1,953 bases of DNA from Dictyostelium discoideum (taxonomy: Eukaryota): contig CH709166.1 in the NCBI GenBank assembly GCA_000004695.1, positions 1 through 1,953 of the forward strand, in the 5' to 3' direction. Both the position numbers and the translations under genes were made by a program. Positions 1-1,953 of the stretch are shown piece after piece. The stretch's first letter is position 1; each line of letters starts with the position of its first letter. Under the pieces are notes generated by a model that was given only the letters and a program-made list of their open reading frames with translations, was not told the origin of the DNA and made no database searches.

Positions 1-96
1 CTCCATTGATTTCATTCTTAAATCAAAGGATTCAGCGCTATTAGAGGCAGAGGTACTACTACTAGAGGCATCATTATATTTAACAGTGGTAGACAT
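1..96 (-). CDS. 5' end (first 32 codons) of a gene running off the left window edge; Ser/Thr-rich N-terminus MSTTVKYNDASSSSTSASNSAESFDLRMKSME
   Basis: The reverse complement of 94-96 is ATG, preceded on the minus strand by caataaaatATG (an A-rich Kozak-like context) with an in-frame stop two codons upstream. The frame stays open for 32 codons to position 1. An AT-rich putative promoter lies upstream on the minus strand (97-215). It is absent from the ORF track, presumably because of the length cut-off. Confidence 0.35.
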   Translation of the reverse strand, partial: MSTTVKYNDASSSSTSASNSAESFDLRMKSME

Positions 97-184
97 ATTT
101 TATTGTTGATATCTAAAATTATAATATGAGAAAAATAATAATATTAAAAATTAATAAAGAGAAATAATTATTTGTATATTTTTT

Positions 185-196
185 GTGTGTGTGTGT
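185..196. repeat. (GT)6 dinucleotide microsatellite
   Basis: gtgtgtgtgtgt read directly. Confidence 0.9.
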
Positions 197-203
197 ATCT
201 TAA

Positions 204-212
204 ATATATATA
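204..212. repeat. (AT)4 microsatellite abutting the outer end of the left arm
   Basis: atatatata followed by ggagg, then the arm begins at 217. Confidence 0.8.
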
Positions 213-316
213 GGAGGAATTCCCAAATAAAATAAATCAAATTGTTTTAGTTTTTAGTGCCACTATTTATACGTTTTTATTTTCTTAAAAATTTCGCAAA
301 ACTCAAAAAAATAAGA

Positions 317-418
317 GTTTTCGACCCTTCACAACTTTGTGCATAGTGTCGGTTCGGAATTTTTCAGTTTTTCGACCTTGTGCAATGATCGCGTCATTGT
401 GCCGGTTCGAAATTTTTA
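317..418 (+). repeat. Diverged tandem duplication of about 50 bp inside the left arm
   Basis: The two units share gttttcgacc ... ttgtgca ... tgtg(t/c)cggttcg(g/a)aattttt. Confidence 0.7.
383..399 (+). other. Perfect 6-bp stem / 5-nt loop hairpin, caatga-tcgcg-tcattg, in the left arm
   Basis: Read directly. The homologous position in the right arm (about 1519-1545) is disrupted but carries a different palindrome, ttgcgcaa. Confidence 0.6.
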
Positions 419-451
419 CTTTTCTTTCGAAAATTTTTTTATTCTTCTCAT

Positions 452-466
452 GTTCTAGAACATTCT
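452..466 (+). promoter_or_regulatory. Three-unit heat-shock element (nTTCnnGAAnnTTCn) in the left arm, embedded in the 14-bp perfect palindrome atgttctagaacat (450-463)
   Basis: gTTCtaGAAcaTTCt matches the Pelham consensus CTnGAAnnTTCnAG at 13 of 14 positions. A TATA-like aaataaataaat lies about 30 bp further inward (497-508). Confidence 0.45.
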
Positions 467-518
467 AAAAAATTATCTTAAATATTTGGGAAATTCAAAT
501 AAATAAATGTTATTCATA

Positions 519-530
519 ATATATATATAT
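519..530. repeat. (AT)6 at the inner end of the left arm
   Basis: Read directly. The right-arm counterpart has 7 units. Confidence 0.85.
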
Positions 531-615
531 GATAATATGGATTCTGCTGCAAGATTTGATATTCTTTATTGAAATATCAGCGAGAATGATTGACAAAACG
601 CGGACGTTCAGTTTT

Positions 616-888
616 TTACTTTTCATGCTCTGCAGCATCCTTAATCTGGATGTGATTTTCATCACCGTGACGACCACAGAACACACCACGGGTTGCCATA
701 TAGTCGGCGAGCATGTTACCACAATGACCGGCATGACCTTTAACCCACTGCATGGTAAACCCAATCTTACGGTCTTTCATTAACTGTACTTTGTCAGTTA
801 ATGTAATCGACAGTTCTTTGTTAGATATGGATTCCCCATCACTCTTCTTCCTGTTGTTTGCTTTCCAACGGGGAAGATAACTCGTCAA
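616..888 (-). CDS. RNase HI-like protein, C-terminal portion only (TTG start in the track; probable gene fragment or degenerate homolog)
   Basis: The translation ...ANNRKK...[12 protein letters not shown]...[23 protein letters not shown] aligns with E. coli RNase HI ...TTNNRME...EVILSTDSQYV...[23 protein letters not shown]. The TD (D70 region) and HAGH...D (D134 region) motifs are present. The roughly 30-aa basic protrusion is shortened to 16 aa, and the N-terminal strands carrying D10 and E48 are absent. An in-frame stop lies 3 codons upstream of the TTG. Confidence 0.5.
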   Translation of the reverse strand: [90 protein letters not shown]

Positions 889-903
889 ACGTACTCAGAA
901 TCT

Positions 904-909
904 GAATAA
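904..909 (+). promoter_or_regulatory. AGGAGG Shine-Dalgarno-like hexamer with no canonical start codon at proper spacing
   Basis: ctaggaggc. The only start-like codon downstream is TTG at 922 (12-nt spacing), which opens a 23-codon hydrophobic ORF (922-993, LSIAISIPLKVAFNSATFLFTAN). Confidence 0.25.
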
Positions 910-1055
910 ACTAGGAGGCTTTACGCGTTCTTGTCGATAGCAATCTCAATTCCGCTTAAGGTTGCTTTCAACTCAGCTACGTTTTTATTTACAGCAAATT
1001 AATGCAGACTTTGGAGACATCTTAAATAACATCGTTATTGGCGATATGACTACAG

Positions 1056-1265
1056 ATGGAAAGTACTGGTGCCCTGAATACTTCCAGGCATCCGGCCGGA
1101 TCTGGCGAAGACAACACGGTTAAGATCTGGTTTTCTGATCCAGTCTTTGCCCTGAGCTACCCACGCTTTAAAATCCTGTTTGAACCATCAGTACATGTTG
1201 AAGATATCGATGTGCTGCACGAAGACTGTGTGACAGCAAAGCCGCTATTACTAAAGGGGATCTGA
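1056..1265 (+). CDS. Hypothetical 69-aa ORF of unknown function
   Basis: ATG-initiated ORF from the track. Codon usage resembles the RNase H-like ORF, but there is no recognisable motif and no ribosome-binding site. It lies divergent from the RNase H-like ORF with a 167-bp spacer. Confidence 0.2.
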   Translation: MESTGALNTSRHPAGSGEDNTVKIWFSDPVFALSYPRFKILFEPSVHVEDIDVLHEDCVTAKPLLLKGI

Positions 1266-1346
1266 CGACTCGTGATCATTGGTAATCTCCCGCAAACCAA
1301 CATTATTGATATGGCGTTTAAGGTCTATGATAAAGAAAACCCCACC

Positions 1347-1387
1347 AAATTAAAAATATATTTTATTAAATTATATTTTATATTAAA
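1347..1387 (+). repeat. 41-bp AT-rich segment X on the inner side of the right arm; inverted copy at 1734-1774
   Basis: The reverse complement of 1734-1774 equals 1347-1387 with 2 mismatches. Confidence 0.75.
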
Positions 1388-1388
1388 C

Positions 1389-1402
1389 ATATATATATAT
1401 AT
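1389..1402. repeat. (AT)7 at the inner end of the right arm
   Basis: Read directly. Confidence 0.85.
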
Positions 1403-1454
1403 TATGAATAACATTTATTTTTTTGAATTTCCCAAATATTTAAGATAATTTTTT

Positions 1455-1470
1455 AGAATGTTCTAGAACA
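1455..1470 (-). promoter_or_regulatory. Mirror-image heat-shock element in the right arm (aGAAtgTTCtaGAAca), with the same 14-bp palindrome at 1458-1471
   Basis: Same motif as the left arm. A TATA-like atttatt lies inward at about 1413-1424. Confidence 0.45.
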
Positions 1471-1496
1471 TGAGAAGAATAAAAAATTTTCGAAAG

Positions 1497-1600
1497 AAGA
1501 GTAAAAATTTCGAACCGGCACAATGACGCGATCTTTGCGCAAGGTTGAAAACATAAAAATTCCGAACCGACACAAGGCACGAATTTGAAGGGTCGAAAAC
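1497..1600 (-). repeat. Corresponding tandem sub-repeat inside the right arm
   Basis: aaaatttcgaaccggcaca ... aaggttgaaaaca is followed by aaaattccgaaccgacaca ... aagggtcgaaaaca. Confidence 0.7.
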
Positions 1601-1698
1601 ACTTATTTTTTGAGTTTTGCGAAATTTTTAAGAAAATAAAAATGTATAAATAGTGGCACTGAAAACTAAAACAATTTGATTTATAGAATTCCGACTTA

Positions 1699-1714
1699 GG
1701 GCGGGTGGGATGGG
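1699..1714 (+). other. Canonical G-quadruplex motif GGGcGGGtGGGatGGG (loops 1,1,2) immediately outside the right arm; begins with a single TTAGGG
   Basis: Read directly. It is an isolated G-rich island within sequence that is more than 85% AT. Confidence 0.6.
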
Positions 1715-1720
1715 ACTGAA

Positions 1721-1734
1721 ATATATATATATAT
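1721..1734. repeat. (AT)7 microsatellite
   Basis: Read directly. Confidence 0.85.
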
Positions 1735-1774
1735 TTAATATAAAATATAATTTAATAAATTAAATTTTTAATTT
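1734..1774 (-). repeat. Inverted copy X' of 1347-1387 on the outer side of the right arm
   Basis: See above. Together with the (AT)7 tracts at 1389-1402 and 1721-1734, it forms a palindrome of about 55 bp interrupted by the right arm plus a 28-nt GC-rich tail. Confidence 0.75.
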
Positions 1775-1896
1775 ATATTATAATATCACAACGATGAAAA
1801 TTACACCTTTTAAAGCAACTTTAAATTATATTAAAAGTGGATTTAAAGTCCTATAAAAAAGTCACTTAAAAATTAATTTAAAAGCAATTTTTTAAA

Positions 1897-1953
1897 TGAC
1901 CTTTAAAATGACCTTTAAAATGACCTTTAAAATGACCTTTAAAATGACATTTT
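1897..1953 (+). repeat. Tandem array of the 12-mer TGACCTTTAAAA (4 perfect copies plus a variant partial copy), truncated by the window end
   Basis: Unit copies lie at 1897-1908, 1909-1920, 1921-1932 and 1933-1944, with tgacatttt at 1945-1953. Degenerate relatives (aaagtcc, aaagtcac, aaagcaa with the same A/T spacing) extend leftward to about 1800. Confidence 0.85.

Follow-up and report, generated by a model that had tools for sequence, protein, structure and literature searches.

How did a short block of foreign-looking DNA come to lie between two inverted copies of one repeat in Dictyostelium discoideum? The stretch analysed here (the window) comprises 1,953 nt and represents the whole of one unplaced contig of strain AX4 (GCA_000004695.1, contig CH709166.1), which carries the gene model DDB_G0294298. 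The first-pass annotation, made from the sequence alone, had taken positions 217-1692 for a foldback unit, i.e. a transposon with long terminal inverted repeats or an element resembling the retrotransposon DIRS-1, enclosing an RNase H-like fragment. What it observed was confirmed and how it interpreted the observation was partly supported. With a probability of about 0.8, we consider the block to be a phage-derived relic located between two outward-lying DIRS-1 remnants, and a fossil of DNA transfer from phage to amoeba.

The geometry of the arms was recovered as three collinear inverted blocks, 431-530/1391-1490 (98 % identity), 361-439/1481-1559 (91 %) and 232-310/1606-1684 (97 %), and a gapped alignment of arm against arm yielded a mean identity of 92 % over ~305 nt, in agreement with the ~315 bp and ~90 % first proposed. 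The internal tandem sub-repeats were also found, as two units of ~50 nt in each arm with the pattern TTTTCGACC...GGTTCGRAATTTTT (left ~318-420, right 1500-1605). The short terminal inverted motifs (GAATTCCCAAATA / TATTTGGGAAATTC) attributed to both arms were clear in the left arm only. Regarding composition, the block between the arms (the core, 539-1346) is distinct, with a GC content of 42.6 % and 100-nt windows peaking at 50-51 %, so that the earlier figure of roughly 50 % holds at the peaks and not overall. Arms and flanks have 20-27 % GC, i.e. 73-80 % AT, short of the ~85 % AT given before.

DIRS-1 (Dictyostelium intermediate repeat sequence 1) is a tyrosine-recombinase retrotransposon of 4814 bp bounded by inverted long terminal repeats (LTRs) of ~330 bp, between which lie ORFs for GAG, RT/RNase H/methyltransferase and the tyrosine recombinase. 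The window was compared with three DIRS-1 clusters harbouring open reading frames (ORFs) with RVT_1 and Phage_integrase domains, designated L002, L003 and L004, the last being a 43.8-kb contig of a second assembly; LTR polarity was settled with a better-ordered DIRS-1 copy in L003. Both arms are 87-97 % identical to the LTRs located beside the RVT_1 and Phage_integrase ORFs. Window 1-530 is collinear, in reverse, with the DIRS-1 5' ends (LTR, 5' untranslated region (UTR) and ORF1) of L002 (90 %) and L003 (92 %) and with that at L004 19266-19806 (97 %). These features all lie on the minus strand and belong to a DIRS-1 copy referred to as copy A. The first 32 codons of ORF1 (GAG) are read from 96 to 1 and continue leftwards beyond the window; their peptide (MSTTVKYNDASSSSTSASNSAESFDLRMKSME, beginning MSTTVKYND) is 91 % identical to short D. 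discoideum proteins (P0001-P0003) and matches the start of the 333-aa ORF1 in the well-ordered L003 copy. Collinearity with L002-L004 places at 97-225 the 5'UTR together with the inner part of the LTR, in which the EcoRI site (217-222) lies, and LTR homology places the left LTR, with its two sub-repeats and a terminus at 538, at 226-538.

The right arm belongs to another remnant, B. In L003 the recombinase ORF ends at 17801 and is followed by a segment (17813-18256) that is the reverse complement of window 1347-1786 at 92 % identity, by which 1347-1690 was assigned, on the minus strand, to a right LTR with its terminus at 1347. The inner end of this LTR (1686-1720, minus strand) comprises the EcoRI site at 1686-1691 and a G-rich block (GGGCGGGTGGGATGGGAC), both being inner-LTR features and found as the same pair in the L003 right LTR. 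The GAATTC motifs placed by the first-pass annotation at the outer ends of its unit (217-222 and 1686-1691) are present, each with a trailing C; they are inner LTR ends, because the DIRS-1 interior continues beyond them. A heat-shock element (TTCTAGAACATTC) occurs in both arms, in each case as a perfect TTCnnGAAnnTTC (453-465 and 1456-1468).

The two termini are preserved in full and in canonical form (...TTTTTAATTT / core / ATATTATCAT...). Right-type LTR ends aligned from several copies stop at ...AAATTTTTAA(TTT), ...TTTTTAA(TTT), which corresponds to window 1347, and an independent left LTR ceases to match beyond window 538, the terminal sequence there (ATATTATCATAT...) being identical to the L half of a canonical internal complementary region (ICR). 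Since the left LTR ends at 538 and the right LTR has a 44-nt terminal extension (1347-1390) beyond the part matching the left arm, the foreign block is 539-1346; the 0.8-kb block exactly bounded by the arms is therefore real, with corrected boundaries. In the canonical ICR of L002 and L003 (...TTCATAATATATATATATATGATAATAT directly followed by AAATTAAAAATTTAATTT...), a sequence complementary to the left start adjoins one complementary to the right end, which is consistent with the ICR as published, i.e. 33 + 55 nt that complement both termini (PMC7192593). The ICR of remnant B (1721-1807, minus strand) was assigned by alignment to these canonical copies and by its pairing: 1721-1774 pairs with 1347-1400 over 54 nt at 94 %, with a predicted 54-bp stem (z = -5.2), and 1775-1807 is a degenerate copy of the ICR half complementing the left-LTR terminus.

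Read along the minus strand, the order is ICR, right LTR (terminus 1347), core, left LTR (terminus 538), 5'UTR and ORF1. Similarity to known LTRs, the heat-shock element, the passage of the left LTR into 5'UTR and ORF1 and the ICR preceding the right LTR together identify the arms as DIRS-1 LTRs whose outer termini at 538 and 1347 face the core. They are inverted because DIRS-1 LTRs always are, and here they come from two different copies. The repeats are textbook DIRS-1 with nothing new in them. Of the transposon or DIRS-like layout originally suggested, the DIRS type of the arms stands and the cargo-enclosing unit does not, the DIRS-1 interior lying outside the arms: 217-1692 is the interval separating two DIRS-1 remnants in tandem orientation, and no cargo-bearing element. 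A placement of the core inside the ICR of a single element was also considered and rejected, as the right arm has the wrong polarity for it and the core is preceded on its left by a complete left LTR instead of 33 nt.

Several further observations concern the LTRs. Some left LTRs carry a 41-44-nt extension typical of the right end (L003 9519-9560) and others do not (window 538, L002 4657, L004 19806), a pattern that occasional regeneration of the left LTR from a right-LTR template would produce. At L002 14435/14436, the terminus of a right LTR directly borders the left ICR half and ORF3 end of another DIRS-1, in reverse complement; this junction falls exactly at the ICR midpoint, which hints at recombination targeting the ICR itself, a sequence resembling a circle junction. 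The ~50-nt LTR sub-repeats (318-420, 1500-1605) contain GGTTCGAAATT / GGTTCGGAATT, which resemble a tRNA B-box (GGTTCGAANCC), with no tRNA predicted there; for the GGTTCGAA motifs, which suggested an RNA gene or tRNA in the arms, neither Rfam (E<=1) nor ARAGORN returned any. Core positions 651-670 are 80 % complementary over 20 nt to 1786-1805 in the degenerate left ICR half, probably by chance. Finally, no match to an arm 33-mer was obtained in IMG/VR, and a text search of papers for the arm sequence or for primers gave none.

What, then, is the core? Searched on its own by blastn, it matched only Erwinia jumbo phages of the genus Agricanvirus, a member of the Chimalliviridae, at 68-72 % identity, in the genes for RNase HI and for a virion structural protein (67.7 % for the segment of the latter). 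These phages of a host in the Enterobacterales, at only 55 % amino acid identity, are the nearest relatives of a core for which the first-pass annotation had proposed an enterobacterial codon bias. At the protein level, residues 92-240 of RNase HI of phage Simmy50 (gp150, 506 aa) aligned by tblastn to window 983-550 at 55-59 % identity (E 4e-36), and residues 98-228 of its gp148 (437 aa) to window 989-1346 at 45-58 % (E 2e-24). The RNase H-like frame proposed by the first-pass annotation was upheld by Pfam PF00075 (56.1 bits for a cut-off of 25.8, profile positions 43-140 of 141) and by PHROG 3265 (E 3.7e-31, positions 89-234 of 496), in addition to the tblastn match; the other frame matched PHROG 3293 (positions 98-221 of 436). 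The core thus holds a fragment of a jumbo-phage RNase HI gene on the minus strand (550-983, aa 92-240 of ~506) and one of a phage virion structural protein gene on the plus strand (989-1346, aa 98-228 of 437), separated by 5 nt (TTTAT, 984-988).

The arrangement of the two fragments carries as much information as their similarity. Both genes are divergent in 11 related phage loci, where the end points matched by the window fragments lie 1118-1130 nt apart as against 5 nt in the window. The conserved divergent order, taken with this difference in spacing, indicates that the core is a single phage-genome segment from which ~1.12 kb was deleted internally at 984-988, with the loss of both N-termini and of the small ORF between the genes. 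Two adjacent genes in conserved order and orientation, together with the homology of each, identify the core as a fragment of a Chimalliviridae-type jumbo phage genome. The core is foreign DNA of prokaryote type, and among the possibilities listed by the first-pass annotation capture by horizontal transfer is the best supported, with a jumbo phage and not E. coli or Klebsiella as donor.

Both phage genes are present as pseudogene fragments. The RNase HI fragment contains three in-frame stops and one frameshift (near 877-888) and lacks its N-terminal part; profile positions 1-42, including the N-terminal strand with the first Asp of an intact RNase H, are absent. The virion structural protein fragment contains one frameshift (near 1095-1102) and one stop (1263-1265). 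The stops match single changes relative to the phage residues (TAY>TAA, TGG>TGA and GAA>TAA). With its reading frames broken, the core does not qualify as a functional horizontally transferred gene; it has no coding function and most likely does nothing. Scans for bacterial promoters and terminators gave no more matches than shuffled sequence. The extent of decay was approached by a simulation on the phage homologues under a simple neutral model, with a threefold higher rate at G/C sites for the GC part. About four stops were reached at 0.10-0.15 substitutions per site, and GC fell from 0.48 to ~0.44, the window segments having 0.431. A long drift of the fragment in an AT-biased genome would fit this simulation, depending on the composition assumed for the donor, and we infer decay after transfer of about 0.1-0.15 substitutions per site.

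The structure is also present in a second assembly. The 43.8-kb contig of assembly GCA_054883475.1 (L004) contains the entire window at 11303-9351, with 1949 of 1953 positions identical (99.8 %). The only four mismatches between the AX4 contig and this assembly, at 179-181 (TTT vs AAA) and 1949 (A vs C), all fall in AT-rich non-core sequence, the core being 100 % identical. In the longer contig, remnant B consists of ICR and right LTR only (~460 nt), with a non-DIRS AT-rich satellite upstream, and copy A of an internally deleted 5' part, after which come DIRS-1 pieces in inverted orientation; on the DIRS-1 reference, B corresponds to ~5014-5457 and A to ~1349-4636, the two being complementary pieces of a single element whose order is permuted. 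The RNase H-like ORF and DDB_G0294298 (XP_628748.1/EAL60335.1; P0005) are 100 % identical, and the corresponding protein cluster has two members, one per assembly (P0005, and P0006 from GCA_054883475.1), the core copy number being judged here from protein clusters among the proteins searched and not from a genome-wide DNA count. Exact-protein look-ups with five window ORFs and P0001/P0005 found no other Dictyostelium copies or strains on record, and a word-indexed protein search for further copies with the virion-protein fragment had no match.

From these elements, the following history is proposed. The window is a piece of a D. discoideum DIRS-1 cluster, composed of a solo ICR and right LTR (B), 808 nt of foreign DNA and copy A, a second, internally deleted DIRS-1 with a canonical left LTR start, 5'UTR and ORF1. 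The bacteria-eating amoeba would have taken a jumbo-phage fragment into its nucleus, the DNA presumably coming from phage-infected prey; the fragment would then have lost ~1.12 kb internally and decayed through nonsense and frameshift mutations. Its position exactly between a right and a left terminus could have arisen in two ways. Either (a) a small segment of phage DNA received a DIRS-1 integration on each side, or (b) phage DNA became trapped at a head-to-tail DIRS-1 junction that already existed or at a circle junction, which could include insertion of a linearised, permuted circle.

Several results weigh against this history. The base triplet to the left of the copy A terminus is TCC, which does not agree with the shared trinucleotide that has been proposed for DIRS integration sites. 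One lineage only was sampled, as the second assembly is near-identical and may come from the same laboratory lineage. Closer donor phages were sought by HMMER against 1.84 billion representative proteins (best 56 %), in IMG/VR (at most 55 %, with no match there for the virion-protein fragment) and in JGI metagenomes (at most 55 %), and no closer donor was found in prokaryote genomes; with no donor closer than 55-59 % amino acid identity, the direction and timing of the changes cannot be polarised. At phage-conserved sites, 36 GC-to-AT changes were counted against 15 AT-to-GC, and similar ratios occurred in some control phages, so that this excess is only weak evidence. Finally, no other phage-like piece was detected within the surrounding 20.7 kb, so that the neighbourhood lends no support to a large phage insertion subsequently broken up by DIRS-1.

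Four other explanations were weighed against the same evidence. That the locus is an artefact of the 2005 AX4 shotgun assembly, whether a chimera formed in cloning or assembly or DNA of contaminating bacteria or phages fused to DIRS-1 reads, might be suspected from a short unplaced contig bounded by repeats, from the foreign composition of its core and from the food bacteria possible in Dictyostelium cultures. The independent 43.8-kb contig spans both junctions with an identical structure, which contradicts a chimera or contaminant as far as the two assemblies can tell. Both junctions lie exactly on DIRS-1 termini, and the core consists of decayed pseudogenes with an internal deletion instead of intact phage DNA. 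The core had no match by megablast in 5,426 E. coli genomes, where near-identity to E. coli or Klebsiella had been named as a warning sign, or in PLSDB plasmids (distant mode), and no collection searched contained a near-identical phage; nor did the arm sequence, for which a match to a cloning vector would likewise have counted against the first-pass reading, match PLSDB plasmids (near mode). We therefore hold an artefact to be very improbable. Equally hard to credit is a composite foldback or long terminal inverted repeat transposon, or a non-autonomous DIRS derivative, mobilising the RNase H-like cargo as a 1.48-kb unit. Inverted 300-nt repeats do flank a unique core, the arms are retroelement LTRs and an engineered cassette with an insert between left and right inverted terminal repeats exists (PMC4482531). 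However, the LTRs are oriented the opposite way from those of any DIRS element or of the engineered cassette, the true termini being inside and facing the core; DIRS-1 homology extends beyond both ends of the unit (1-216 and 1693-1807); the core contains only phage fragments, with no reverse transcriptase, tyrosine recombinase or transposase in Pfam and PHROG searches; and only the single two-member protein cluster described above was found. A transposon of this type would instead end at the outer repeat edges, amid unrelated flanks and a target-site duplication, and be present in several copies.

A role for the locus as a source of small RNAs is somewhat easier to envisage and still quite improbable. 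Read-through over the inverted LTRs, which are 92 % complementary, would give a hairpin with a ~300-bp stem and a ~860-nt loop, from which Dicer could release LTR small interfering RNAs that contribute to DIRS-1 silencing; published LTR-derived small RNAs are symmetric and RrpC-independent, and were suggested to be Dicer products (PMC3950715). On the other hand, LTR promoters point inward, into DIRS-1 (PMC3950715, PMC4482531), so that in the window the left arm would fire leftwards and the right arm rightwards, away from the core, and many other inverted DIRS-1 fragments in clusters could serve equally. The last alternative is a sub-variant of the preferred history, in which ligation placed phage DNA between the two ends, right and left, of a DIRS-1 replication intermediate or into a break at a head-to-tail junction, the locus being a rearranged, circularly permuted or tandem DIRS-1 whose joined ends enclose an 808-nt filler. 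It would account for two complete, canonical termini that together reproduce both halves of the ICR or circle-junction sequence, for the complementary, permuted extents of B and A, for the lack of other phage DNA within 20.7 kb and for a left junction without the trinucleotide expected from ordinary recombinase-mediated integration; DIRS-1 complementary DNA and circular intermediates are documented, the junction itself never having been amplified (PMC7192593). Against it, the permutation is inexact (A ends at reference position 4636 and B starts near 5000), A has several internal deletions in a heavily rearranged neighbourhood, there is one example only, and two independent insertions in the same orientation, with a prior of ~1 in 4, explain the layout equally well. 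This route is unlikely on balance. The corresponding claim that the locus preserves joined DIRS-1 ends as a genomic fossil, with 808 bp of prey-phage DNA trapped exactly between the termini, is likewise doubtful; if true, it would be physical evidence for the postulated, never amplified circle-junction step of tyrosine-recombinase retrotransposition, as well as a way for ingested foreign DNA to reach centromeric heterochromatin through capture by a retroelement intermediate.

The preferred reading, a phage relic between two DIRS-1 remnants, was compared with known systems. With DIRS-1 itself, the arms share LTR identity, heat-shock element, EcoRI site, ORF1 start and ICR. In contrast to DIRS-1, whose LTRs bound one element, the window shows the order right LTR, core, left LTR with nothing of DIRS-1 between the arms, remnant B is reduced to ICR and LTR, and copy A is internally deleted. 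Agricanvirus and other Ea35-70-like phages have a locus composed of RNase HI (~506 aa), a small ORF and the virion structural protein (437 aa). The window shares two of these genes in divergent order (45-59 % amino acid and 68-72 % nucleotide identity), and differs by four stops, two frameshifts, ~1.12 kb deleted and a GC content a few points lower. The DIRS-1 inverted terminal repeat cassette engineered for knock-down (Friedrich et al. 2015, PMC4482531) likewise places two inverted LTRs around a 0.4-0.8-kb foreign fragment; its promoters converge on the insert, whereas in the window the LTR order is reversed and the promoters diverge, and the AX4 contig is older than the vector.

The analysis thus combines known retrotransposon ends with a new, small example of a phage-to-eukaryote DNA fossil, the significance of which is modest. 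Bacterial genes have been horizontally transferred into Dictyostelium, and filler DNA or organelle DNA (as in nuclear copies of mitochondrial DNA) is captured at chromosome breaks. The window resembles such cases in holding prokaryote-type DNA in the nucleus of a bacterivore, as a short non-coding relic in repeat-rich DNA, and departs from them in that the donor is a jumbo phage, the fragment is dead and the junctions lie on retrotransposon termini. The core is a small, clean example of how DNA of a nucleus-forming jumbo phage has become a fossil within the nuclear genome of an amoeba that feeds on bacteria. Such a relic fits the idea that phagotrophs acquire DNA from their food, and shows that DIRS-1-rich (centromere-type) regions can retain such DNA. 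As both junctions fall exactly on DIRS-1 termini, they form a natural non-DIRS junction pair that could inform DIRS-1 integration or end joining. In practice, DDB_G0294298 is to be regarded as a pseudogene of phage origin, not as an RNase H gene belonging to Dictyostelium. No paper mentioning DDB_G0294298 or phage DNA in Dictyostelium DIRS clusters turned up in text searches, which is absence of evidence only.

Beyond the remnants, DIRS-1 homology ends near 1807, and 1808-1953 is a non-DIRS AT-rich repeat upstream of B. It includes a satellite with a 12-nt unit (TTTAAAATGACC), present in 5.2 copies at window 1890-1952 and in 17.7 copies at L004 9203-9414. Over the 9 kb upstream, related AT-rich repeats of 105 and 117 nt are found again at least four times (L004 338-601, 3888-4151, 4994-5187 and 6619-6882). 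A 70-aa ankyrin-repeat-like ORF at L004 6910-7122 lies in an island of 43-44 % GC among AT-rich repeats, ~3 kb from the phage relic, and could be another stranded gene fragment. Additionally, a 57-nt tandem repeat is present in 2.6 copies at L004 2288-2434, with a tRNA T-arm-like GGTTCGATTCCC motif.

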